In this document: one piece after another, positions 27,988 to 43,438 of the stretch | Layout of the letters: each line of letters opens with the position of its first letter | Numbering within the stretch: the first letter of the stretch is position 1 | NCBI GenBank assembly: GCA_003132585.1 | Contig: PKYG01000091.1 | Location: 18,893-64,385, forward strand | DNA length: 45,493 nucleotides | Reading direction: 5' to 3' | From: Actinomycetota bacterium | Lineage (GTDB): Bacteria; Actinomycetota; Thermoleophilia; UBA2241 | Notes under the pieces: model-generated | Database searches by the model: none | Told to the model about the DNA's origin: nothing | Seen by the model: the letters and a program-made list of their open reading frames with translations, nothing else | Program-made: the position numbers and the translations under genes

Positions 27988-28085
27988 GAAAGCACGAAGA
28001 CCGGCCGACGGGCCGGTCTCACTAGTGGCTCCCCGCCGGACTGCGGTGGCCGCAGCGGTACGTCCGGCGGATCACAGCCTCCCGT
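27988..28085 (-). promoter_or_regulatory. c-di-GMP-II-type riboswitch with overlapping terminator (copy A)
   Basis: ACGGGAGGCTGTGATCCGCCGGA...GCGGCCAC...TCCGGCGGGGAGCCACTAGTGAGACCGGCCCGT: P1, kink-turn GA motifs, CAC/GTG pseudoknot; hairpin AGACCGGCC/GGCCGGTCT + TCGTGCTTTCT. Confidence 0.78.
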
Positions 28086-28152
28086 GTGCAGTGCTGCACC
28101 TATCAGGAGTCTCGTACGACGATTGTATATCCCGACGCGGTGACGAGGTCAA
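28086..28152 (-). promoter_or_regulatory. Repeated promoter/leader (copy A)
   Basis: TTGACC-N17-TATACA then TACGAGACTCCTGATAGGTGCAGC. Confidence 0.65.
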
Positions 28153-31969: not shown

Positions 31970-32067
31970 AGAAAGCACGAAGACCGGCCCGCGGGCCGGT
32001 CTCACCAATGGCTCCCCGCCGGATGATGGTGGCCGCGACGTGCCTCCGGCGGATCAGAGCTTCCCGT
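31970..32067 (-). promoter_or_regulatory. c-di-GMP-II-type riboswitch with overlapping terminator (copy B)
   Basis: ACGGGAAGCTCTGATCCGCCGGA...GCGGCCACC...TCCGGCGGGGAGCCATTGGTGAGACCGGCCCGC + GGGCCGGTCTTCGTGCTTTCT. Confidence 0.78.
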
Positions 32068-32134
32068 ATAGAGCGCTGCTCGTATCAAGAGTCTCGTACT
32101 TTGATGGTCTATACCTACGCAGTGACAGCGTCAA
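32068..32134 (-). promoter_or_regulatory. Repeated promoter/leader (copy B)
   Basis: TTGACG-N17-TAGACC then TACGAGACTCTTGATACGAGCAGC. Confidence 0.65.
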
Positions 32135-32290: not shown

Positions 32291-32366
32291 TGGTGGACCG
32301 CAGGGGAGTCGAACCCCTGACCTCCGCCGTGCAAAGGCGGCGCTCTCCCATCTGAGCTAGCGGCCC
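32291..32366 (-). tRNA. tRNA-Ala(TGC)
   Basis: GGGCCGCTAGCTCAGATGGGAGAGCGCCGCCTTTGCACGGCGGAGGTCAGGGGTTCGACTCCCCTGCGGTCCACCA; G3:U70, encoded CCA. Confidence 0.97.
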
Positions 32367-32928: not shown

Positions 32929-34110
32929 ATGGGCGACGACCAGATCGGCGGACGCGGCGCTGGCGCAGCGCCCGAGCGCGGCACAGGCGCGGCACCGCCG
33001 CGCCAGCAGAAACGGCACCGCGCATTCATCATCGCCCTGCTGGTTGGCGTGCTCCTGATCGCCGTGTTCCTGCTGATCGATGCCGTCCGCCAGCATCCGC
33101 ATCTCGACCGCCCCGGCAAGCCGCCGTTGGGCTACCTGCGCAAGCCGCTCGGCGGGCGCACGTACCGTGTGAGTGCGTGGACGCTGGGCGACACACACTC
33201 ACTCCAAGTTGCGACCGCCGCCAACGCCGTCGACGAGATCGACTTCGACTGGTACCAGTCGCGGCGCGACGGCAGCGTCGCCGCGCACAACGAGAACCTC
33301 GACCTCGTCGCCGCCGCCCGCGATCACAACCTCAATATCTTCGCCACGGTGACCAACTATGCCGGCGGCAAGGCCGGCTTCGATCAGAGTGCAGCGGCGG
33401 CGATCCTCGCTTCGCCCGACAGCCGCCGCCTCCACATCGACAACCTCGTCGCCCTGGTCATCAACAAGGGCTACGACGGCATCGACCTCGACTGGGAGAG
33501 CCTCAGGGCGAGCGATCGCGAGCTCTTCGCAACGTTTGTCACCGAGCTCGCCGCGGCGCTGCACGCCAAGCATCGATTCCTCTCGATCGCCGTCTTCCCG
33601 AAGACGTCCGAGCCCGGCCCTTGGGACAATCAGATCTCCCAGGACTACGCGCGTCTTGGCGCAGCCGTCGACGAGTTCAAGATCATGACCTACAACTACA
33701 GCGGCTCGTGGAGCGCCCCCGGGCCGCAGGCGCCGGCGGCCTGGATCAACGCCGTGCTCACCTTCGCCGAGAGCAAGGTGCCGCCGGCCAAGATCAGCAT
33801 GGGCGTGCCGTTCTACGGCTACGACTGGCACAGCGGCTCTACGTCCACGTTCCTCGCCCGTGACGCCGTCGCGGCGGCGGCCAAGTACAACCTCGAAGTC
33901 GCCCGCGAGCCGGCGTCAAACGAGGCGAAGCTGAGCTTCACCGACACCGGCGGCACCAGCCACGTCGCCATCTACCAGGACGCGGCGGCGATCTCCACCA
34001 AGCTCCGCCTGCTCGCCGACAAGCACCCACACATCGCCGGCATCGCGATCTGGGTGATGAGCCAGGAGGACCCGGGGTTCTGGACGGTGATCGAGCAGAA
34101 GCTGCGCTGA
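32929..34110 (+). CDS. Membrane-anchored glycoside hydrolase family 18
   Basis: N-terminal TM; GYDGIDLDWE catalytic motif, IMTYNY, MGVPFYGYDW, GIAIW. Confidence 0.9.
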   Translation: MGDDQIGGRGAGAAPERGTGAAPPRQQKRHRAFIIALLVGVLLIAVFLLIDAVRQHPHLDRPGKPPLGYLRKPLGGRTYRVSAWTLGDTHSLQVATAANAVDEIDFDWYQSRRDGSVAAHNENLDLVAAARDHNLNIFATVTNYAGGKAGFDQSAAAAILASPDSRRLHIDNLVALVINKGYDGIDLDWESLRASDRELFATFVTELAAALHAKHRFLSIAVFPKTSEPGPWDNQISQDYARLGAAVDEFKIMTYNYSGSWSAPGPQAPAAWINAVLTFAESKVPPAKISMGVPFYGYDWHSGSTSTFLARDAVAAAAKYNLEVAREPASNEAKLSFTDTGGTSHVAIYQDAAAISTKLRLLADKHPHIAGIAIWVMSQEDPGFWTVIEQKLR

Positions 34111-34128
34111 GGACGGCCGGCGGCCATC

Positions 34129-34686
34129 TCAGCCGTCACCGCGCAGCCGCCGCGTCCACGCCACCAGCGCTTCGAGCTGGGCGCGGACCACGGCGCGGGT
34201 CTTCTCGTCCACGAGAGTGCCCTTTTCGTCGAACCGCTCCGTCGCGAAGGAGACCATCACCTCGGGCTTGTTGAGCACAAGCGCCTCGACGAAGACCATC
34301 GACTGGCGCAGATGATACTGCATGCGCGCCGTGCCCATGGCACCGCTCGTGGCGCCCATGATCGCCACCGGCTTGTCTCTGAACGGCTGACCGGCAACCG
34401 GCCGTGACACCCAGTCGATCGCGTTCTTCAACACCCCCGGCATCGAGAAATTGTACTCGGGCGAGATGAACAGCACGGCGTCGGCGGTGGCGATCTGCTC
34501 GCGCAGTCGTTTCACGGGCTCGGGATGACCGTGCTCGACGAGCACGTCCTCGTTGTAGAGGGGGATCGCCGAGATGTCGGCAGCGTCAATCGTCACCGCG
34601 TCGGGAAGAAGGTCTCGCAGGTTCTCATACAGCATTCGGTTGTACGACGCCCGCCGCAGGCTCCCGATGATCGCGAGGATGTGCAC
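34129..34686 (-). CDS. NADPH-dependent FMN reductase (ChrR/SsuE-like)
   Basis: GSLRRASYN, SPEYNFSMPGVLKNAIDWVSR, GTARMQYHLRQ. Confidence 0.92.
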   Translation of the reverse strand: MHILAIIGSLRRASYNRMLYENLRDLLPDAVTIDAADISAIPLYNEDVLVEHGHPEPVKRLREQIATADAVLFISPEYNFSMPGVLKNAIDWVSRPVAGQPFRDKPVAIMGATSGAMGTARMQYHLRQSMVFVEALVLNKPEVMVSFATERFDEKGTLVDEKTRAVVRAQLEALVAWTRRLRGDG

Positions 34687-34828
34687 TATCGCCTCCGTTC
34701 TCCGTGACGCGAACCGCGAGCGCGGTTGACCGCAGCTCCACAGTGCAGTGATACCCGGTGGGAAACGTGGCGGGCGGTGGCGCAGCAAGGCCGTCGCGGG
34801 CGGTGGCGAAGCCGCGTCCGCCCGCCGC

Positions 34829-35638
34829 CTACTTCTCCGAGGCCGCCTGCTCCTCCGACGCCGCCGTGCGCGGCCCCATGGCGACCCAGCCACCGTTGCC
34901 GTCACGCTGCACGGGCACGACCGGCCGGCCGCCCCAGAGGCGCGGCCGCAGCCAGTTCTCCGTCGCGATCGGCTCGTCCCCGCGCAGTATCGGCGCGTCG
35001 CGGTCGAGCGCGGTGACGGCGATGCCTGCGGCCGCGAGCTCGGCGACGGTCACCGGGTCGCCGAACTCGCGCAGCGGCACGTGGTAGTCGATCATGCGGC
35101 CGCTCCAGCCATCGTGCGTGAGCCCGACCCCGGCGGCAGCGCCGATGACGCCGTCCTCGCTGCCGCCGTGGCCGGAGAGATGCACGCCTTCGGCGGCCGC
35201 GTACGCCTCGGCTTGCGTGACGACCTCGGTCGCCGCCCGTCGCCCGAAGGCGGCGAGGCGCTCCAGCGCCGGCGACCCGTCCCAGGCGACGCAGAGGCCC
35301 GGGTCGCTGCCGTCGAGCCAGTGGCGCGCGAGGTGCCGCACGGCGCGCTCGACGAGGTCGTCGAGACCGGGCGGCACGGCGGAGCCGTCGCCGCCGCCCA
35401 CCTCGGCGCCCACGTACTCGAGTACGCACACCGCGGCGCTGTTGTGCGACGTGTACGGCACGCGCGGATCGACGAGCAACTGCTGGCGCACGACTGCCCA
35501 GGGCCGCCACGGCACCACGAGTTCGTCGCAGAACCAGCGACCGACCTTGCCGGTGCCGCGCTCGGCGCCGAGGTAGTCGGTGTCGTCGAAGGCGACGTAG
35601 ACGCGTCGCCACGCCGCGACCGGCATGGCCGGCGTCAT
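34829..35638 (-). CDS. TiaS-like N-terminal-domain (DDTD) protein
   Basis: VAFDDTD..GTGK, RQQLLVDPRVPYTSHNSA, GSDPGLCV, GVIGAAAGVGL...GR. Confidence 0.75.
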   Translation of the reverse strand: MTPAMPVAAWRRVYVAFDDTDYLGAERGTGKVGRWFCDELVVPWRPWAVVRQQLLVDPRVPYTSHNSAAVCVLEYVGAEVGGGDGSAVPPGLDDLVERAVRHLARHWLDGSDPGLCVAWDGSPALERLAAFGRRAATEVVTQAEAYAAAEGVHLSGHGGSEDGVIGAAAGVGLTHDGWSGRMIDYHVPLREFGDPVTVAELAAAGIAVTALDRDAPILRGDEPIATENWLRPRLWGGRPVVPVQRDGNGGWVAMGPRTAASEEQAASEK

Positions 35639-37587
35639 CGCCCGATCGCTTTCAGCTGGGGGCCGTCGATGCCGGTCGGAGGCGTGACGTGGTCGAAGCG
35701 CGCCAGGCGCCGCAGGCGCCGGCCGACAACGAGTCCCGGCACGAAGAAGATGCCGACGGCGGCGCCGAACAGGCCGGCGGCGAGCGATGCCGCGCTCACA
35801 TGCGAATCGAACCCGCCGCCGGCAGTGCTGTCGGCGCCGCCAGCGCCGATGATGCCCTGCACGGGGATGCCCGTGACCTCGCTGCCGGACCCCGTGGTCG
35901 CCGTCGCCGGAACGATTCCCGGTGACTGCGTGCCGGCGCCGTTGCCTGATGTGCCGGCGCCGGCAGCTCCGCTGCCCCGACCGGCTCCCGTGCCCGAGCC
36001 CGACCAGCCGCCCGGCCCAACCGGCAAGATCGTGCTCAAGTCGGGGCTCAGCGGCGGCTGCGGGTGCACGGCCGTCTTGTCGTCGGTGTCGTCGCCCGAT
36101 CCGTTACCGCCACCGGACGTGACCGGCACGGAGGCGATCGTCACATCGGCGAGTACCGGCGAGACAGCGCAGGCGGCGCTCGTCAGGGTCACCCGGTACG
36201 CAATCGTCGCGGCGACGCTGCCGGCGGGAAGAGAAAAGCGCGACGCGCCGTCGAGCGAGACGGCGCCGGCGGCCGGGAGCCACGCGCCGCCGCCGAGCCG
36301 ATACTCGAGCCCGACATCGGCGCCGTCGGGCACCGTCGCGCTGCACGCGATCCGCAGAAAACGCTTTTTGGCGAAGGCGCTGCCTGCATCGAGCGGCGCC
36401 GACGTGAGCGTCACGCTCTGCAGCATGCCGATCTCGACGATGCGCCGGAAGCCGCTGTCGGCGACCAGCACCGATCCGTCGGCGGCGAGTGTCGCCGAGC
36501 GCGGCGCCGATACGGCAGTCGTTCCGGCGCCCGCCGGCGGGTCGAACGCCGCCATGTCGTAGCTGCGCACCACTTGCCTGGCTTCCGTCACCTCGAGTAC
36601 GCGGCCGTTGCCGGTGTCGCAGATCAGCGTGTCGCCGTTGGCCATCCGCTGCGCGTAGGTGGGGTCGGAGAGATGACCGGCTGCCGTGCCGGCGACATCG
36701 GTCGTGCCGTACTGCCAGACGATGTCGCCGCCGCGGTCGACCTCGATCACGCGCTGGCCGTCGGCGTCGGTGATCAGCGTGTCGCCGTTCGCCAGCCGTT
36801 GCGGCGAACGCGGCTTCTTCAGTTGGTCGGGGCCGCTGCCGTAGACGCCGGGCATGCCGTACTGCCAGACGATGCTGGCGGCCGTGAAGCCGTTATCGGG
36901 CTCACCGGCGCGATAGTCGGCGTAGCGCACTTCGATCACCCGCTCAGCGCCGAGGTTGTCGGCGATCAGGATGTTGCCGTCGGGTGTGCGCGAGGCCATG
37001 AACGGGTCTTCGAGCCGGTTCACGCCGAGACCCGGTTTGCCGGCCTCGCCGTACTGCCATACCACGGTCTTGCTCTGATCGACGACGAAGACGCGCGCGG
37101 CGTAGCGGTCGGCGATCAGCGTGTACGGCCGGCCGTGATCGTAGAAGCGCCAGGCGAAGAATGGCTTCTGCAGGTTCGGATCGTCGGCCTGGGTGTACGA
37201 CCACAGGGCGTGACCGTCGGGTGCGACAACGGCGACGAACCCGGACGTCGGGTCGTTGAAGAAGCGATTGGTGATCAGAACGTTGCCGCCGGGCAAGGGT
37301 TGAGCGCTGCGCGGGTCGACGGTCGTCGGATCGAAGCCGGCGTAGATCGGGCTGGTGCCGTCGAGCCGCCACTTCACGATCGGCGCGAGCGCCAGGGACT
37401 GGTCCGCACCACCCGACAGAGCGACGCCGGCGGGCACGGTGCCAAACGAGAACGGATAGCCGCTCGTGCCTTCGAGCGTGAGCGTCGGCGCGAGGGCGGC
37501 GGCCGCGGCGGCGTTCGCCGCCCCGGCCGCCGCGCACAGCGCCGCGACGAGAAGGGTCTGGATAAGGCTGCGCAGCCGCCGGCTCAC
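35635..37587 (-). CDS. Surface beta-propeller (NHL/arylsulfotransferase-like) protein with G/S/T linker and C-terminal TM anchor
   Basis: Signal peptide; repeats WQYG...P..AQRLANGDTLI.D.GN.RVIEV; TM + RRLRR tail; GTG overlaps upstream TGA. Confidence 0.78.
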   Translation of the reverse strand: MSRRLRSLIQTLLVAALCAAAGAANAAAAAALAPTLTLEGTSGYPFSFGTVPAGVALSGGADQSLALAPIVKWRLDGTSPIYAGFDPTTVDPRSAQPLPGGNVLITNRFFNDPTSGFVAVVAPDGHALWSYTQADDPNLQKPFFAWRFYDHGRPYTLIADRYAARVFVVDQSKTVVWQYGEAGKPGLGVNRLEDPFMASRTPDGNILIADNLGAERVIEVRYADYRAGEPDNGFTAASIVWQYGMPGVYGSGPDQLKKPRSPQRLANGDTLITDADGQRVIEVDRGGDIVWQYGTTDVAGTAAGHLSDPTYAQRMANGDTLICDTGNGRVLEVTEARQVVRSYDMAAFDPPAGAGTTAVSAPRSATLAADGSVLVADSGFRRIVEIGMLQSVTLTSAPLDAGSAFAKKRFLRIACSATVPDGADVGLEYRLGGGAWLPAAGAVSLDGASRFSLPAGSVAATIAYRVTLTSAACAVSPVLADVTIASVPVTSGGGNGSGDDTDDKTAVHPQPPLSPDLSTILPVGPGGWSGSGTGAGRGSGAAGAGTSGNGAGTQSPGIVPATATTGSGSEVTGIPVQGIIGAGGADSTAGGGFDSHVSAASLAAGLFGAAVGIFFVPGLVVGRRLRRLARFDHVTPPTGIDGPQLKAIGR

Positions 37588-38159
37588 GCCCCCACTCCCG
37601 GGATCTTCCTCAGTTGCGCGACCAGCAGGACGCCGAGCAGGCCGCCGATCGCGCCGAACACCACATGCGTCGTCGCCGCGTAACCCAGGCCCCAGAAGAG
37701 GAAGCCCAGCGGCAGCTTGAGGATCGCGCCGATGATCAGCGTCGTGATCAGCTTGGCCAGGTTCGCCAGCGCGCCGATGACGGCGACGCTCACCTTGTTC
37801 GAGATGCCGCCGGGCAGGAGCGCCGCGCCGAGGTCGACCGTGAGCCCCATGGCGACGTACTTGACCCACTCGAGAAACGGCGCGTGGCCGTGGCCGAGCA
37901 AAGTCAGGAGAACACCGGCGAGCAGTCCCATCAGCAGGCCGGTGCCGCGCCTGCCGACGATCCCGCGCCCGACGACGAAGAGCGCCACGACGACAGCGCC
38001 GGTGTGACCGGGCACGTGCAGCGGCACGTTGATCAGCACCTTGCCGAGCACGACAAGGTCGGCGATCAGCGCCACCAGGAGAGCGTCGCGCAAGGTGAGC
38101 GACCAGATGAAGCGCCGGCTCGTCGCCGGCGCGTTAGTGGACACGGAGCTCTGTGACAT
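37584..38159 (-). CDS. ECF-transporter S-component-like membrane protein
   Basis: 191 aa, about 6 TMs, PLHVPGHTG, GTGLLMGLLAG, THVVFGAIGG. Confidence 0.65.
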   Translation of the reverse strand: MSQSSVSTNAPATSRRFIWSLTLRDALLVALIADLVVLGKVLINVPLHVPGHTGAVVVALFVVGRGIVGRRGTGLLMGLLAGVLLTLLGHGHAPFLEWVKYVAMGLTVDLGAALLPGGISNKVSVAVIGALANLAKLITTLIIGAILKLPLGFLFWGLGYAATTHVVFGAIGGLLGVLLVAQLRKIPGVGA

Positions 38160-38616
38160 CGCGCACCCTCAGGCGCCAGTCCATCGTCGGCGACACGATC
38201 TTGACCGTGCCGCGGTCGTTAAAGTCGAGGATCGTGTCGCCGGTGACCGCCTTCGCCGCCAAAGTGAGGCGGCCGCTGTCACGCAGCCCCATGCCGCGCA
38301 CTTCCAGTGTCGTGAAGCTCGTCACGCCGGCCGCCGTGAGCACCGTCTGCACGGTCGGGCCGTGCTGCGGCTTGCCGTCGGCGATGATCGTCACCGCGGG
38401 CAAGGCGCGCAGCGCGGCGACACTGAACTGCTTCAGCACAGTGTCGCCGCGCATCACCTTGACCGCGTAGCCGGGCGCCGGCCGGCCCGACGCCGACTGC
38501 GTCGTCCCGGTCACCCGCCACTCGACGATCCAGGCGAGGGCGACCAGCACGAGCACGGCAGCGACCAGCGCCGCCAAGCGGCGCGGCGTAGCTTTCCGTG
38601 TGCGCTGGTCGCCCAT
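38134..38616 (-). CDS. Membrane-anchored protein with molybdopterin-oxidoreductase-like fold
   Basis: N-terminal TM; FSVAALRALP, GPTVQTVLTAAGV, LEVRG, VRDVTELRV resemble truncated Oxidored_molyb domains. Confidence 0.55.
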   Translation of the reverse strand: MGDQRTRKATPRRLAALVAAVLVLVALAWIVEWRVTGTTQSASGRPAPGYAVKVMRGDTVLKQFSVAALRALPAVTIIADGKPQHGPTVQTVLTAAGVTSFTTLEVRGMGLRDSGRLTLAAKAVTGDTILDFNDRGTVKIVSPTMDWRLRVRDVTELRVH

Positions 38617-38636
38617 CGCCCTCCGTCACATTACCG

Positions 38637-40778
38637 TCACGTTACCGTCAGGTACCGGTACGCCGACTTCGTCGCCGCGTGCAGCGCGTCGGCCGGATGG
38701 TAGGCGCGCAGCCGCCAGCGGCCGGCGCTCGGCAGCGCGAACCGCGCCCGGTACTTGCTGTAGGTCGAGTAGTTCAGGTTGGCGGCGTTCACCGTCAGTT
38801 TGAGCACCCACGTGCCGCTCCGCAGCTTGTAGCAGAGGATCCTGACTGAGCGCTGCCCGGCCGGATGCCGCGGCTGAAGCGTGCCGGTCGAGGTGAAGGC
38901 GACACCGTGACGCACTCTCAACGGTGCGCTCGGCGTGCCGAGCAGCACGTGCGGCGTGACGGTCACCGGCGCACTCTGCGAGCCCGCGAAGTCGACATCG
39001 CCGGGGAAGCGCAGACGGTACATCGTCTTTTGCCTGAGATGGGCCGCGGCCAGCACGCTGTACGAACCGTCGGCCGAAGGCAGGTCGGCTACCCAGGACC
39101 ATACGCTGCCGTCGGGTGAGCTCTCGAGCACGACTTGCTTGCCGCCGAGCGGCGCGCCATCGGTGCTCAGCTGCCCGCTGAGCTGCACTGCGCCGCGCCA
39201 CGGGACGACGAGCAGAGGCGGCGTCAATGTGAGCATCGTCGCGCCCCGCGGCACGACGCTCCCGAAGACGCCGCTCGACCAGTTGCCGGCAGCATCGCGG
39301 GCGAAGATGCCGTAGTAGTACGTAGCGCCGTTGCTGAGACTGGAGTCGTCGTAAGCGGTGCCTGCGCCGGAGTAGACCGCCGTGCCGTCGGCGGCGTCGG
39401 CCGGCTGGTGGCTGTCGTTGCGCACCACCGTCGTCGCGCTCCAATCGGGGTCGCCGGGGTTGGTCCACGCAATCGACGCCGCTTGATCGCCCGGCGTGAA
39501 GGTAGCGCCGGTCACCGGTCCCGGCGGCGTGCCGTCGGGGGTCGCCGTCGCTTCGTTCGAACGCGGCCCCTCGTTGGTCGCCGCGTCGTGTGCGCGCACG
39601 AGGTAGTGATACGTCGTGTCGTTCGCGACCGTTGCATCGGTGTAGGTCGTCTCCGTTGTCGTGCCGATGACGACGGCGGGCGCCGTTTCGACGGCCAGGC
39701 CGAGGTCGACCCAGCGGTAGATCGTGTAGCCGGTGACGCCGACGTCGTCCGTGGCTGCCGTCCAGGAGAGCGCGACGCTGGCGTTGTGCGCCGTCGCGCT
39801 CAAACCCGTCGGCGTGTCCGGCGGCGTCTGATTGGAAGCGCCGTAAGCGATGTCGACGTCGCTCGTGGCGCCGGTGAAGCTGCTCGCGCCCGTCGGCCAG
39901 ATCGTGGTGCCCTGCAGCAGCACGTCGAACGCGAGGCCGGCGGGCACCGCCAGCCGGAAGTCACCGGCGGTGCCCGCCGGCCCGTAGTCTTCGTTGTCGA
40001 GGATCCCGTCGGCGTTGTCGTCGCAGAGATTGGGCTCGGTGCGCTGCAGGCTCCACAGCGTCGTCGTGCCGCCGGCGACACTCTCTGCCCGCTTGGCGCC
40101 CGTCAACCCAGTGGCCACGCCGTTGTGGACCCAGAAACCGCCGCCGCTCGTCGCCGTCATGTCGAGCACGGTGACGGCCGGCGCGGACGAGCCGTTCAGA
40201 GTCGATCCGCTCGCCCCCGGGTTGAGCGACACGATCCAGTGGTAGGTGCCCGACAGCCGCGTGTCGCCGAACTTGACGTAGTACCAGGAATTCGTCGTGA
40301 TCAGTCCGGAGCTGTCGGTCGTGATCGACGGGAAGTCCGCCCAGGTCGCGTCGTCCGACTGCACCCACTGACTGGTGGTGGAGTTCCAGATGAAGCCGCG
40401 GTTGGCGCCGGAGACGGGGCCCGTGGAGGGGCTGAAGCGGATCTTCACGTAGTACGTCGTGCTCGTGGCCAGCCCGGCGGACGCCGAGAAGCGCACGGCA
40501 GTGACAGTGTGATCGTTGGCCACATACGTGGCGCTGTCGGCGGCGGTCACCCCGCCGGTGTACGAGCCGCTGGCGGCGAAGGCGGCGGGGGCCGCGAGCG
40601 CGACAAGCGCGGCGGCGAGCGCGAGTGCAAGACCGAGGCCGACGAGAGCGGCGATGCGCGCGCTCGTCATTCTCCGTCGGGTGCTCGCGCCCGTCATCCT
40701 CCGTCGCTCGCTCGCGCCCGGCTTCTCTGCCACCGGCCTCCTCATGGATGTGCCTGACACTGGTTTCTCTTGGAGCAT
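38637..40778 (-). CDS. Secreted fibronectin type III domain protein
   Basis: Signal peptide; PDTPTGLSATA..VALSWTAATDDVGVTGYTIYR, YHYLVRAHDAATNE, second FN3 YYYGIFARDAAGNWS; C-terminal Ig-like domains. Confidence 0.82.
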   Translation of the reverse strand: MLQEKPVSGTSMRRPVAEKPGASERRRMTGASTRRRMTSARIAALVGLGLALALAAALVALAAPAAFAASGSYTGGVTAADSATYVANDHTVTAVRFSASAGLATSTTYYVKIRFSPSTGPVSGANRGFIWNSTTSQWVQSDDATWADFPSITTDSSGLITTNSWYYVKFGDTRLSGTYHWIVSLNPGASGSTLNGSSAPAVTVLDMTATSGGGFWVHNGVATGLTGAKRAESVAGGTTTLWSLQRTEPNLCDDNADGILDNEDYGPAGTAGDFRLAVPAGLAFDVLLQGTTIWPTGASSFTGATSDVDIAYGASNQTPPDTPTGLSATAHNASVALSWTAATDDVGVTGYTIYRWVDLGLAVETAPAVVIGTTTETTYTDATVANDTTYHYLVRAHDAATNEGPRSNEATATPDGTPPGPVTGATFTPGDQAASIAWTNPGDPDWSATTVVRNDSHQPADAADGTAVYSGAGTAYDDSSLSNGATYYYGIFARDAAGNWSSGVFGSVVPRGATMLTLTPPLLVVPWRGAVQLSGQLSTDGAPLGGKQVVLESSPDGSVWSWVADLPSADGSYSVLAAAHLRQKTMYRLRFPGDVDFAGSQSAPVTVTPHVLLGTPSAPLRVRHGVAFTSTGTLQPRHPAGQRSVRILCYKLRSGTWVLKLTVNAANLNYSTYSKYRARFALPSAGRWRLRAYHPADALHAATKSAYRYLTVT

Positions 40779-40800
40779 GACGTGGTTCCCTCCCTGTTCT

Positions 40801-41802
40801 TCAGGCGCTCAACTGGATGACAGCGCCGGTTGCCGATGTGTCGTAGCCGGTCAGATCCTCGACCTGCCGCTTGAAGTCGGCCGACTCGAGGCGCGCGAGG
40901 ACGGGGTGAAAGCGCGCGCTGGCGAAGATATCGTGCGGCATGACGAGGTCGAACTGCTCCTTGAAGAGCGGCACGAACCCGAGCCCCTGGCGGGCGGCGG
41001 CGGCGCGGATGCCGAGCGCCGCGTCGGCGCGGCCGGCGGCGATCAGCGCGGCCGCCTCCCCATGGCTCGTCACTTCCGTGACGTAGCCGTTCAGGGCGGC
41101 CGCGCCCAGCCCCTTGCCGGCCAGATACCGGTCCAGCCACACGCGCGTGCCCGAGCCGACGTTGCGATTGACGAACACGGCGCCGGAGGCGGCGACGTCG
41201 GCGATCGAGCCGAAGCCGCGCGGATTGCCGGGAGCGACGATCAGCCCCTGCTCGCGATGCGCCAGTGTCACGAGTGAGAGCGGGCTGCCGGGAAACAGGT
41301 GCTGCGCGTAGGAGCGGTTGTACTCGCCCGTGTCGGCGTCGAGCAGGTGGCAGCCGGCGGCGTCGCCGAGGCCGTGACGCAGGGCGATGAGACCTTCGAG
41401 GCTGCCCATGCGCATCGTCACGATGTCAGGTGCAGCCGGGTCAGCGCGCAGGTCGGCGGCCAGCAGGTCGAGCGCCGCGTCGTCGCTGCCGACGATCACC
41501 AGCAGGCCGCGCTCGCGCGCCTCGGGCACGACGATGAAGTCGACGGCGAAGGCGCGCGCCGTCGCGGCATAGTACTTCTCCTGATGGCCGCGGACGGCAC
41601 GGGTCTCCGCGAGCTCGATCAGACCGGCGCGCTCGAGCGCGAGCACGTGGTGGCGGATCCAGGCGGGGTGCTTGCCGAAGCGCGCGCCGAGCTGCGTCAG
41701 CGTCGCCGGCGCCGCCATGACGTGACGAAGAATCGCCAGCCGGTCGGCGTTGGCGAGCACCTTGAGTTGTTCGTACTGGTCGACGTGATGGATGTCGTCC
41801 AC
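40801..41802 (-). CDS. ArsR-like HTH + molybdate-type PBP-domain transcriptional regulator
   Basis: LKVLANADRLAIL...HHVLALERAGLI; GSDD.ALD, GSLEGLIAL, AGCHLLD..GEYN, REQGLIV, FVNRNVGSGTR, GYD. Confidence 0.88.
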   Translation of the reverse strand: MDDIHHVDQYEQLKVLANADRLAILRHVMAAPATLTQLGARFGKHPAWIRHHVLALERAGLIELAETRAVRGHQEKYYAATARAFAVDFIVVPEARERGLLVIVGSDDAALDLLAADLRADPAAPDIVTMRMGSLEGLIALRHGLGDAAGCHLLDADTGEYNRSYAQHLFPGSPLSLVTLAHREQGLIVAPGNPRGFGSIADVAASGAVFVNRNVGSGTRVWLDRYLAGKGLGAAALNGYVTEVTSHGEAAALIAAGRADAALGIRAAAARQGLGFVPLFKEQFDLVMPHDIFASARFHPVLARLESADFKRQVEDLTGYDTSATGAVIQLSA

Positions 41803-41824
41803 GCTGCTCCTGCGACTGCGGTCG

Positions 41825-41879
41825 GGCCGCTAAGGAAGTGCTTAGCGGCCATTCTACCGCAGTCGCCGGCGCCGGTGAA
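41825..41879 (-). promoter_or_regulatory. Promoter with perfect operator palindrome at the start site
   Basis: TTCACC-N17-TAGAAT (41879-41851), then GGCCGCTAAG-N6-CTTAGCGGCC (41825-41850). Confidence 0.75.
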
Positions 41880-41975
41880 GTCCTCGCGCCGCCGCGCTTC
41901 ACAGCACGCCCACCTGTGCGCTACTCTTGCGGCAGCGCGGTGACCCCCGCGCGTCGGCGTCGGAGGGATGAGACC

Positions 41976-42266
41976 ATGGGATGCTGCTTCGGCTGCGTAG
42001 GGCTGATCGCACCGCGTCTGGCGACGCTCTTCCTTTGGCTCTTCACTAATCTCGTCACGCGCGCCTTCACCAGCTTGGTGTTCCCGCTGGCCGGCATCAT
42101 CTTCCTGCCGTTCACGACGCTGGTCTACGTGCTCGTCTATGCGCCCGGTCGCGGCGTCACAGGCTTGGGCTGGGTGTGTGTGGTCGTCGCCTTCTTCATG
42201 GACTTCGGCTCGTACGGCGGCGGTTACTCGAATCGCAAACGCCTGCCCGGATACGGCCGGTACTAG
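41976..42266 (+). CDS. Small membrane protein
   Basis: PRLATLFLWLF, GIIFLPFTTLVY, GWVCVVVAFFMD; RBS GGAGGG. Confidence 0.75.
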   Translation: MGCCFGCVGLIAPRLATLFLWLFTNLVTRAFTSLVFPLAGIIFLPFTTLVYVLVYAPGRGVTGLGWVCVVVAFFMDFGSYGGGYSNRKRLPGYGRY

Positions 42267-43438
42267 CTCTTCGCGCCGCCGCGGCGCAACTTCGCGGCCA
42301 ACCGCTGCGTCAGCGGCCGCGTGTCTTTGACCGGCGGCGGCGCCGCCGCCCTCGTGAGCTCCGAGTCGAGCACCTCGTGGCGCTGGGCGAAGGTCTCGAT
42401 GCCAGCCTGGATGACCGCCGTCACGGGCAATGCCAGGATCCCGCCGATCGCTCCGAAGAGACTGGCGCCGACGATCACCGAGCCGAAGGCGATGCCGGCG
42501 TTCAGCTCCATCGTGTGCGCCGTCACGCGCGGGCTGAAGATGTAGTTCTCGAGCTGCTGGTAGACCAGGACGTAGATGAGGAACACCAGCGCCCGGGACG
42601 GAGACACCAGCAGCGCGACCATCAACGGTAGCGCCGCGCCGATGTACGTGCCGATCGTCGGGATGAACTGCGAGACGACGCCCATGAAGAGCGCCAAAGG
42701 CAGGGCGTACCCGACGCCGATGATCTTCAGCGCGGCGTAGCCGAAGACCGCCGAGAGCGCCGCCAGCAGCGCCCGCGAGTAGAGGTAGCCGCCGACCTTG
42801 TCGACGGCCGTCTCCCAGCCCCAGAGAAAGTAGTGCTGGCGCCGCTCCGGCAGGTAGGAGAGCACGGCCCGCCGCAGTCGCGGCCCGTCGGCCAGCAGAT
42901 AGAAGGCGAAGAGGCCGATCGTCAATGCCTTGAAGACGGCGCCGACGACGGCCGCGCCGAAGCCGAAGAGCTTGCCGGCGATGTCGCCCCTGTAGCTGAG
43001 CAGCTTGGCACTCGCCGCGCGCAGCGTGTCCGTGACGTGCTGCGTGGAGAGGTCGATGCTCAGCCACTTGTTGCTGTACTTGCTGATCCGCGCCAGCCAG
43101 TCCGGCAGGTGGTCGATGAGGGCGCGCGCCTGGCTGATGAACAGCGGCATCATGAGGATGATCGTGCCGACGGCGAGGATGACGAGCACGACCAGCATCG
43201 TGAACGCGGCGAGCCCGCGGGGCCAGCCGTGCCGGGCCAGCCACTGCACCGCCGGCTCGAGCGCGAACGAGAGAAAGAGCGCGACGACGACCATGGTGAT
43301 GAAGCTGCCGAGTTGGCGGACGGCGGCGATCGTGAGCAGCACCGCGAAAACGGTGACGAACAGACCCGCCATGAACGGCACGATCCAGGCCGGCCGCTTC
43401 AGTTCGGGATCGTGCAGTTCGACCTGCGGGTCTGTCAT
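42263..43438 (-). CDS. AI-2E family transporter
   Basis: ALFLSFALEPAVQWL, FYLLADG, QFIPTIG, YQQLENYIFSPRV, GGILALPV. Confidence 0.92.
   Translation of the reverse strand: MTDPQVELHDPELKRPAWIVPFMAGLFVTVFAVLLTIAAVRQLGSFITMVVVALFLSFALEPAVQWLARHGWPRGLAAFTMLVVLVILAVGTIILMMPLFISQARALIDHLPDWLARISKYSNKWLSIDLSTQHVTDTLRAASAKLLSYRGDIAGKLFGFGAAVVGAVFKALTIGLFAFYLLADGPRLRRAVLSYLPERRQHYFLWGWETAVDKVGGYLYSRALLAALSAVFGYAALKIIGVGYALPLALFMGVVSQFIPTIGTYIGAALPLMVALLVSPSRALVFLIYVLVYQQLENYIFSPRVTAHTMELNAGIAFGSVIVGASLFGAIGGILALPVTAVIQAGIETFAQRHEVLDSELTRAAAPPPVKDTRPLTQRLAAKLRRGGAKS

Follow-up and report, generated by a model that had tools for sequence, protein, structure and literature searches.

The acquisition of molybdenum and tungsten (Mo/W) by bacteria relies on several well-known components, namely ATP-binding cassette (ABC) importers of the ModABC, TupABC and WtpABC types, in which a periplasmic binding protein works with a permease and an ATPase, regulators carrying a PBP_like sensor domain, riboswitches for the molybdenum cofactor (Moco), and the storage protein MoSto. 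Energy-coupling factor (ECF) transporters are equally well known. In the CbiMNQO and NikMNQO systems, the substrate-binding unit (S-component) is joined by a small membrane-anchored accessory protein, CbiN or NikN, encoded just upstream, and the Met-His N-terminus of CbiM and NikM forms the metal site. We are not aware of any bacterial transporter that takes up the molybdenum or tungsten cofactor itself; to our knowledge, the way in which tungsten and molybdenum are acquired and sorted, and the retention of molybdoenzymes by cells that lack the biosynthetic genes, are open questions. Here, we describe six genes, g1 to g6, from a 45,493-nucleotide (nt) stretch of contig PKYG01000091.1 (assembly GCA_003132585.1; Actinomycetota; Thermoleophilia; UBA2241), the whole of which is referred to as the window. 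We propose, with a probability of about one half, that these genes encode a Mo/W-regulated system by which a cofactor of the molybdopterin type (Mo- or W-pterin), or part of one, is captured in anoxic peat and imported by an ECF transporter.

The transporter assignment comes from g4, which the preliminary description of the locus had called similar to an ECF S-component. Searches with g4 itself return no Pfam match at E up to 1 and no match in NCBIfam or among Protein Data Bank (PDB) sequences. Its structural model (mean predicted confidence, pLDDT, 85) shows the six helices of the S-component fold, and a fold search over 48,161 chains, which does not depend on Foldseek, returns ECF S-components in all of the top 14 positions. 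The best match is 5edl (Z 18.5, root-mean-square deviation (rmsd) 2.6 over 165 residues), followed by ThiT, PanT, FolT, RibU, BioY, NikM and CbiM, while the first non-ECF chain scores Z 8.3. The 5edl chain, which we take to be the thiamine-binding YkoE of B. subtilis (Pfam PF09819), shares with g4 the six-helix fold and an AxxxA-like pattern in helix 1. Seven of 13 relatives of g4 match PF09819 (best E 3.4e-6) and two match PF07155; PF09819 also occurs in 20% of the rank-4 cluster for g4 in an atlas look-up, which serves as a lead only. Unlike 5edl, g4 has no Pfam or NCBIfam match, has an Oxidored_molyb-like partner and lies in a Mo/W rather than a thiamine context, and the alignment of its relatives reveals a Gly-His of its own, invariant in the loop after helix 1, together with a nearly invariant Asp. 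The fold also resembles NikM (4m5c, Z 11.4) and CbiM (5x3x, Z 9.8), from which g4 differs by its six helices and by a sequence that lacks the Met-His N-terminus. Among 80 loci collected around relatives of g6 (see below), homologues of g4 directly follow a fused EcfAA' and EcfT in nine, all Gram-negative, and the same neighbourhood is found in the sister operons described below. Fold and neighbourhood together bear out the S-component.

The gene before it, g3, encodes a protein with a single hydrophobic helix at its N-terminus, followed by an ectodomain of some 110 amino acids (aa). Direct searches of Pfam, NCBIfam and PDB sequences give no match, and none of nine g3 relatives matches PF00174, the sulfite-oxidase-type Moco domain (Oxidored_molyb), at E up to 5. 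Homology to this domain is reached by an indirect profile-profile link: the g3 alignment, compared with an alignment of seven small anchored PF00174-positive proteins, gives an hhalign probability of 96.3% (E 1.5e-9, 110 columns, residues 47-160), and 95.5% against one small PF00174-positive protein, while two larger PF00174 proteins yield 0.15% and 0.6%. An atlas look-up, again a lead only, places PF00174 in 17% of the rank-5 cluster for g3. In the sulfite-oxidase family, a cysteine serves as the Mo ligand. Because g3 contains no cysteine, and with an ectodomain far shorter than the 169-position model, g3 is most probably a binding-type relative of the Moco domain and not an enzyme of the PF00174 family. 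Thus, of the anchored Moco-oxidoreductase-like domain proposed initially, the anchor and the homology stand, whereas neither the ligand cysteine nor a full-length catalytic domain is present.

A predicted complex connects the two proteins. The g3 helix (residues 10-36) is placed against g4 residues 111-166, packing on g4 helices 4-6, with a score of 0.63, a value reached by 116 of 157 solved complexes and by 2 of 215 mismatched pairs, and the best of three controls scores 0.00. Runs agree in at least 86% of contacts, and the pLDDT of the partners is at least 79. Binding of g3 to g4 is therefore supported at the level of modelling. The arrangement resembles CbiN and NikN, since a small membrane-anchored protein is encoded just upstream of the S-component; in contrast to CbiN, g3 carries a folded ectodomain that is unrelated to it.

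The nature of the ligand is best approached through a set of sister operons. Among 401 sampled genomes of the same phylum, 12 more encode remote homologues, which the g4 profile detects at 1e-13 to 1e-18; 11 of these genomes belong to a low-G+C family (f21) and one (G355) to the family of the window. Gene content was assigned by Pfam in four loci. Three of them (L115, L118 and L121, from G058, G129 and G101) encode, in order, two Oxidored_molyb-like proteins of 359-394 and 158-162 aa, an S-component (PF09819), a Phosphodiest/nucleotide pyrophosphatase, a third Oxidored_molyb-like protein of 174-181 aa, EcfA, EcfA' and EcfT, MobB, and a protein of about 260 aa that is weakly similar to APH kinases in one locus. 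Two further loci show the same gene sizes, this being the only basis for the comparison. In G355 (L113), the S-component is fused to the pyrophosphatase, an Oxidored_molyb protein precedes it, and Big_2 surface proteins lie around it.

The genomes that carry these operons are unusual in their own cofactor genes. All 12 encode a PF00384 molybdopterin oxidoreductase, while MoaA and MoaC are each found in one, MoaE in none and MoeA in five; these absences rest on metagenome-assembled genomes (MAGs) that are 92-98% complete. Across the 80 genomes of f21, MoaC is present in 2 of 22 S-component carriers and in 33 of 58 non-carriers (odds ratio 0.076, naive Fisher p = 1e-4); when a completeness of 90% or more is required, the figures are 1 of 12 and 18 of 33, respectively (p = 0.007). 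These p-values ignore kinship, and many f21 genomes are incomplete; because relatives are not independent, they overstate the association. The S-component and MoaC nonetheless replace each other inside seven genera (g189, g230, g74, g65, g39, g254 and g257), which lessens the concern over common ancestry. The plain reading is that the sister operon supplies a pterin cofactor that the cell cannot make, and the genomes that carry it look like Moco auxotrophs with a salvage transporter. The combination of an external pyrophosphatase with an internal MobB would fit a cofactor that is taken up in de-nucleotidylated form and reassembled inside the cell. As g3 and g4 form the homologous core of this sister system, a molybdopterin-type ligand is the most economical guess for the window pair as well.

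The regulator g1 would tie the operon itself to Mo/W. It joins a PBP_like sensor (PF12727, 6e-59) to a DNA-binding HTH_20 domain (7e-7), as the initial claim of a helix-turn-helix regulator with a molybdate-type binding domain had it; residues 93-330 match the C-terminal part of the MoeA-fusion model (8e-62), and g1 is the sole strong PBP_like match in the genome. Control of Mo/W genes by proteins of this type is presumably exemplified by TunR of Desulfovibrio. The PF12727 sensor is common to g1 and the known regulators, the head being ArsR-type (HTH_20) in g1 and HTH_17 in the deltaproteobacterial neighbour regulators. TupR (Rajeev 2019) and the MoeA-PF12727 fusion are treated in PMC10102598. 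Between the promoter-like site and g1 lies a perfect palindrome, whose core is unique in the window and absent from all 100 shuffled sequences; the promoter-like site is itself the only sigma-70-like match in 34000-42400, where shuffles average 0.5. A search of relatives shows that the exact palindrome is not conserved outside this genome. By eye, looser CTAAG-N6-(C/T)TTAG-like half-sites stand just 5' of g1 in six relatives (L001, L002, L003, L004, L013 and L021) and were not seen in L005, L006 and L012, a pattern that fits autoregulation and no more. The palindrome would accordingly be a candidate operator to which g1 may bind, and, judging from gene context and this site, g1 is predicted to be a molybdate- or tungstate-binding controller of Mo/W genes. 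Divergently from g1 in a Thermoleophilia relative, a full Oxidored_molyb protein is encoded (L002, 2739-3611, minus strand, 9.1e-28).

Two surface proteins complete the outer part of the system, and both were correctly recognised at the outset. The FN3 surface protein g2 matches fn3 in Pfam and the FN3 domain of chitinase A1 (3.4e-9); its N-terminus is signal-peptide-like, so it is read as secreted and not anchored, and a homologue adjoins g1 in 8 of the 80 loci (at least 40% query coverage). The beta-propeller g5 belongs to the NHL type (TRIM2 NHL, 7.6e-7), with a signal peptide and a C-terminal hydrophobic anchor that can be read from the sequence. Its true start is the GTG at 37587, giving 650 aa; the listed open reading frame (ORF) of 744 aa, which overlaps g4, is not the gene.

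The last gene, g6, encodes a protein of 269 aa (model pLDDT 85) for which direct Pfam, NCBIfam and PDB sequence searches give no match. Its fold matches the kinase domain of TiaS (3amt, 3amu, 4rvz; PF22641) with Z 18.8 and an rmsd of 1.9 over 145 residues, unrelated chains reaching 6.7 at most. A profile built from 16 g6 relatives finds P. furiosus TiaS (E 4.8e-5), the motifs DDTD, PY(K/T)(T/S), (N/D)PG and G(I/L)IGA align between the two, and FDDTD (D18 D19 T20 D21) is invariant in all 16 aligned relatives, in agreement with the TiaS-like DDTD protein reported before. The model for this domain (PF22641, TiaS_TCKD) is matched by 3 of 16 relatives (best E 0.0038), the window protein falling below detection. 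In archaeal TiaS, the ferredoxin-like, OB and zinc-ribbon domains hold the tRNA. As these domains are absent from g6, whose matches stop within residue 243 of TiaS chains of 402-420 residues, g6 is not classed as a tRNA(Ile2) agmatidine synthetase. The family is large, with 2287 matches among 8000 scored candidates and 966 clusters at 50% identity (230 at E up to 1e-30). Unlike archaeal TiaS, it is bacterial and located in Mo/W loci. Nearly all of 150 listed representatives measure 230-270 aa; seven longer ones have no informative extra domain, and a search aimed at longer fused forms gave none, which is weak evidence. Source names of relatives are 'hypothetical' or, in the case of g6, 'TiaS' (some by JGI). 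Two other identities were considered and dropped: similarity to the HPPK fold (Z about 6.4) lies within the range of common arrangements, and a role as MogA/MoaB stand-in is ruled out in this genome by a stand-alone MoCF_biosynth gene beside moaA and moaC. One Acidobacteriota MAG encodes a 240-aa ORF directly after g6 (L071, 10731-11453), read as a tandem second copy of g6 because, as a tblastn query, it matches 79 of the 80 loci.

With each species represented by a single genome, a scan for g6 confirmed 582 relatives, and the best 80 loci were kept. They come mostly from MAGs of Thermoleophilia, Coriobacteriia, Syntrophales, Desulfobacterales, Desulfovibrionales, Synergistales, Spirochaetes, Acidobacteriota and Bacteroidota, and many of the loci are from Syntrophales and Desulfobacterales that are related to each other. 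The set as a whole is present again in 10 loci, which belong to Thermoleophilia, Coriobacteriia and other Actinomycetota and show identities of 34-69%. Neighbours were counted by tblastn (E 1e-6, at least 40% query coverage), ABC ATPase counts being set aside because they are inflated by cross-matches. At least one Mo/W-linked gene lies near g6 in 58 of the 80 loci: an amino-acid-kinase-fold protein homologous to MoSto-beta (5.9e-60 to 2ogx_B) in 44, a TupA-type binding protein in 35, TupB in 33, a PBP_like regulator in 29, MoeA in 6 and AOR in 3. Homologues of g4 are found in 20 loci, TonB-dependent receptors in 12 and EcfT in 9. On the same strand, the MoSto-like gene comes directly after g6 in 29 loci, and the gene directly before g6 encodes an ABC ATPase in 18 loci and a TonB receptor in 8. 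The TupA calls have NF041772 as their sole match, yet below its cut-off; ModA of L047 passes the NF002917 cut-off, and the TonB receptors of g6 loci pass no NCBIfam subfamily cut-off.

Pfam assignments for 102 neighbouring proteins from 13 of the loci reveal three recurring arrangements around g6: a regulator followed by TupA, TupA, TupB, TupC, g6 and a MoSto-like or DUF364 gene; a TonB receptor followed by g6, fused EcfAA', EcfT and a g4 homologue in Gram-negative bacteria (L035, L073 and L071); and a TonB receptor, g6 and an exporter-fold ABC protein in five loci. The second, whose locus L073 is from the cultured deltaproteobacterium NaphS2, recalls TonB/ExbBD uptake, such as the BtuB route for B12, in that the TonB receptor directly precedes g6, EcfAA'T and the S-component. 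Judging from this synteny, the surface proteins of Gram-positive-type bacteria and the TonB receptor of Gram-negative bacteria appear to hold the same place in the system. Two loci place Mo/W genes beside the set itself: L007, with the order g3, g4, g5, ExbB, DUF2149, g6, Moco riboswitch, TupA, TupB and TupC, and L021, where g1 to g6 are followed by a Moco riboswitch, TupABC, MobA/FdhD, MoeA and MobB. The Mo/W link of the system thus appears well supported by context in relatives, and what was found is not an S-component of a known vitamin family with no connection to Mo/W. The adjacency of tupABC and cofactor genes is shared with the TupABC, ModABC, Moco riboswitch and PBP_like systems; the operon differs from TupABC and ModABC by its ECF-type transporter with surface proteins and by the absence of a periplasmic binding protein.

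Several variants of these arrangements were seen in individual loci. ExbB-like and DUF2149 genes follow g5 in L005 (16859-17916), L007 (3215-4174) and L013 (9015-9989), which suggests, in Gram-positive-type Actinomycetota, a proton-driven motor for surface uptake proteins without an outer membrane; the window operon differs from TonB/ExbBD systems in having neither gene. DUF364/DUF4213 ('putative heavy-metal chelation') replaces the MoSto-like gene after g6 in L008 (10776-11555), and L061 also has a DUF364 match. What may be a third variant occurs in G300 (contig C105, L114): roughly 150 nt separate a divergent g6 (3.9e-46) from a stretch with weak similarity to g4 (1.3e-7), and a protein of 1346 aa with SBP_bac_11 at its C-terminal end is encoded nearby.

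The features of the operon are listed in Table 1. As first described, the six genes are tightly coupled on the minus strand (34829-41802), downstream of a single promoter-like site that is accompanied by a palindrome: g2 begins 22 nt after g1 and g3 20 nt after g2, g3 and g4 overlap by 26 nt, the last two junctions are overlaps of 4 nt, and a purine-rich stretch stands immediately 5' of all six starts; the recurrence of the set in 10 loci confirms the grouping. G+C content in this part of the window is about 70%. Pfam and NCBIfam scans also bear out the stated absence of ModABC/TupABC and of EcfA/T genes from the operon, which lacks the binding protein, permease and ATPase of a ModABC-, TupABC- or WtpABC-type importer.

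Table 1. Coordinates of the operon and its upstream elements in the window.
Feature	Position	Strand	Remarks
Promoter-like site TTCACC-17-TAGAAT	41851..41879	-	consensus match only, 5' of g1
Perfect 10-6-10 palindrome GGCCGCTAAG-N6-CTTAGCGGCC, candidate g1 operator	41824..41849	-	between -10 hexamer and g1 start
g1: regulator, ArsR-type winged helix-turn-helix and PBP_like (molybdate/tungstate-type) sensor	40801..41802	-	GTG start 41802
g2: secreted surface protein, N-terminal domain without family, FN3 repeats, Ig-like tail	38637..40778	-	ATG start
g3: single-pass anchored, cysteine-less Oxidored_molyb-like domain, predicted g4 accessory subunit	38134..38616	-	ATG start
g4: ECF transporter S-component, divergent branch near YkoE/PF09819	37584..38159	-	ATG start
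g5: NHL-type beta-propeller surface protein, signal peptide, Gly/Ser-rich linker, C-terminal membrane anchor	35635..37587	-	GTG start
g6: cytoplasmic stand-alone TiaS-type kinase domain (TCKD) without tRNA-binding domains, uncharacterised family	34829..35638	-	ATG start

None of the genes flanking the operon is Mo/W-related. Upstream lie a small divergent membrane ORF and then an AI-2E-family transporter; the former, a very hydrophobic ORF at about 41975-42266 (plus strand), shares the promoter region with g1 and lies inside the listed ORF 41838-42266. On the other side, an FMN reductase gene (34129-34686, start most likely 34686) was considered as a seventh member and rejected, being separated by 142 nt and having no homologue in the 80 loci. 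Farther off, the minus strand carries two c-di-GMP-II-GAG riboswitch aptamers (28002-28091, 65.4 bits; 31985-32073, 60.6 bits; gathering score 40) and a tRNA gene (32294-32366, 63.8 bits) that adjoins a GH18 chitinase-like gene (32929-34110, plus strand). The stretch occurs in peat and soil metagenome sequencing runs, and no RNA run is listed among the runs that contain it.

Altogether, these observations are compatible with a model in which g1 would sense molybdate or tungstate through its PBP_like domain and, with ample oxyanion, act at the palindrome as a repressor of the operon. The surface proteins g2 and g5 would capture or process the substrate in the cell envelope, a task that a TonB-dependent receptor would take over in Gram-negative relatives, as their synteny suggests. 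According to the predicted complex, g3 would dock on g4 by its transmembrane helix and hand over the ligand, and g4 would be driven by an EcfAA'T module encoded elsewhere, the host genome having five CbiQ/EcfT matches outside the operon. Finally, g6 might perform a cytoplasmic ATP-using step on the Mo/W cofactor pool, the re-phosphorylation or activation of a pterin being a guess; it would then be a general ATP-dependent enzyme of that pool. One of the ECF modules of the host, on contig C7 (L103, 1539-8940), comprises DUF4430, EcfT, fused EcfAA', an S-component (DUF6580/ECF-ribofla_trS), a squalene-cyclase-like Ig protein, MotA/ExbB-like and DUF2149 genes, and has the same building plan as g1 to g6 with different parts.

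A number of observations weigh against the import of a pterin cofactor. EcfA/T genes are absent not only from the operon but also from all 10 Actinomycetota loci. The link of the window g3 and g4 to the sister operons passes through profiles (1e-13 to 1e-18 for g4, hhalign 96% for g3) and involves no direct Pfam match; the sister operons have no g6, which itself is found in 3 of the 401 phylum genomes. Two of five g6 genomes have no g4 homologue, and g6 stands most often beside tupABC and a MoSto-like gene without any S-component; its usual company of plain tungstate transporters and storage proteins is as good an argument for the metal as for the pterin. No Moco riboswitch was found in the window or in seven TonB/ECF loci scanned. 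AOR occurs in all 10 g6 genomes and in 154 of 191 others; with 164 of 201 genomes of the phylum positive, this co-occurrence does not discriminate. The host has four AOR loci and encodes MoaA, MoaC, a stand-alone MoCF_biosynth protein (MogA/MoaB-like), two MoeA and a ModABC-like importer (contig C86), and MoaC is present in all eight g6-type genomes checked, the host included. Since it keeps MoaC, the host is not a cofactor auxotroph, and the gain would probably lie in a scarce metal and saved synthesis rather than in the rescue of auxotrophy. Taken with the oxyanion-type regulator and with g6, this leads us to read the operon as a response to Mo/W limitation that would import Mo- or W-pterin mainly for its metal. 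The scavenging of Mo/W or of a pterin cofactor, as first proposed, thus stands in respect of the Mo/W neighbours of g6 and of the sister operons with Moa loss; it is weakened by the host and seven other genomes that keep MoaC and by the many g6 loci without an S-component. The co-occurrence suggested as a check is similarly divided, AOR being uninformative and moa genes being rare in the sister-operon genomes.

Because the genome makes its own cofactor, the main rival is the import of the metal, either as trace tungstate or molybdate or as Mo/W in complex with organic matter, a metallophore or sulfide. Here, g3 would be an oxyanion- or metal-capture domain and g6 would serve ATP-dependent Mo/W trafficking between import, storage (MoSto-like) and insertion (MoeA). 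The TupA, TupB, MoSto-like and ModA neighbours of g6, the oxyanion-type domain of g1, the pterin synthesis retained in all eight g6 genomes tested, the invariant His and nearly invariant Asp of g4, and the peat habitat all suit this alternative, as do the five loci in which g6 and a TonB receptor are accompanied by an ABC protein of the exporter fold, a fold used by some siderophore importers. In the host genome, which is 91% complete, tblastn with the MoSto-like query (E cut-off 1e-5) gives no match, unlike the loci in which a homologue of MoSto (2ogx) stands beside g6. Against metal import, the genome already encodes a ModABC-like importer, and a small oxyanion needs no TonB receptor unless it is very scarce. 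In addition, g3 and g4 are homologous to a pair found in operons that replace MoaA, MoaC and MoaE and that include MobB and a nucleotide pyrophosphatase, which argues for a pterin or nucleotide ligand. We regard metal import as possible, if rather unlikely.

The remaining alternatives are far less probable. It is improbable that an unrelated nutrient, such as a thiamine-type compound, is imported and that the Mo/W neighbours are coincidental: the closest fold to g4 is 5edl, more than half of the g4 relatives weakly match PF09819, and no Mo/W enzyme or transporter gene lies inside the window operon, yet Mo/W genes recur around g6 and around the whole set in several phyla, the sister operons with MobB and Oxidored_molyb-like proteins are anticorrelated with MoaC, and riboswitch scans of the operon and of L113, L114 and L110 detected neither a thiamine pyrophosphate (TPP) element nor any other. 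We consider it very improbable that g3 and g5 act as enzymes outside the cytoplasm, in a redox or hydrolytic pathway at the cell surface, with g4 as a membrane scaffold and not a transporter. PF00174 is indeed an enzyme domain, NHL propellers include hydrolases, the Actinomycetota loci have no EcfA/T gene, and ExbB-like and DUF2149 genes follow g5 in three of them; against this stand the missing ligand cysteine and the short domain of g3, and the g4 homologues directly after EcfAA'T in Gram-negative loci and sister operons. A role of g6 in tRNA modification, as for archaeal TiaS, with no connection to the rest of the operon, is scarcely credible, although g6 has in common with the TiaS kinase domain both fold and motifs and some relatives bear the TiaS name. 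The family is only about 240-270 aa long in nearly all listed representatives, the alignment with TiaS ends within the kinase domain, the absence of longer fused forms adds weak evidence, the start of g6 overlaps the stop of g5, and Mo/W genes accompany most of its loci.

The import of a molybdopterin-type cofactor, if true, would extend what is known of ECF transporters. In the literature covered, which scarcely extends to subscription journals, no paper was found that describes the uptake of Mo/W or its cofactor through an ECF or TonB system, and none that deals with TiaS-like proteins in bacteria. Each of the folds involved is already known; what is new, in our reading, is the class of ligand that an ECF system handles here, together with its accessory capture domain and the enzyme family that partners it. 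The locus offers candidates for each of these roles, namely a capture domain derived from a Moco-binding fold, a dedicated S-component, and the widespread family of ATP-dependent enzymes represented by g6, which spans Actinomycetota, Syntrophales, Desulfobacterales, Synergistales, Acidobacteriota and others and is tied to loci for tungstate uptake and storage. Somewhat more tentatively, molybdopterin-cofactor ECF transporters may exist in two forms, a complete one that replaces the Moa proteins and a Mo/W-regulated one, with surface proteins or a TonB receptor, that scavenges Mo- or W-pterin for its metal, with g6 as the missing ATP-dependent enzyme of the Mo/W cofactor, for instance a pterin kinase or activating enzyme. 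The sister ECF operon merits a study of its own: the complete form would let bacteria without MoaA, MoaC and MoaE run molybdoenzymes on scavenged cofactor, and, if cofactor import is confirmed, the exchange of cofactors would have to be considered beside that of vitamins in peat and other anoxic communities.

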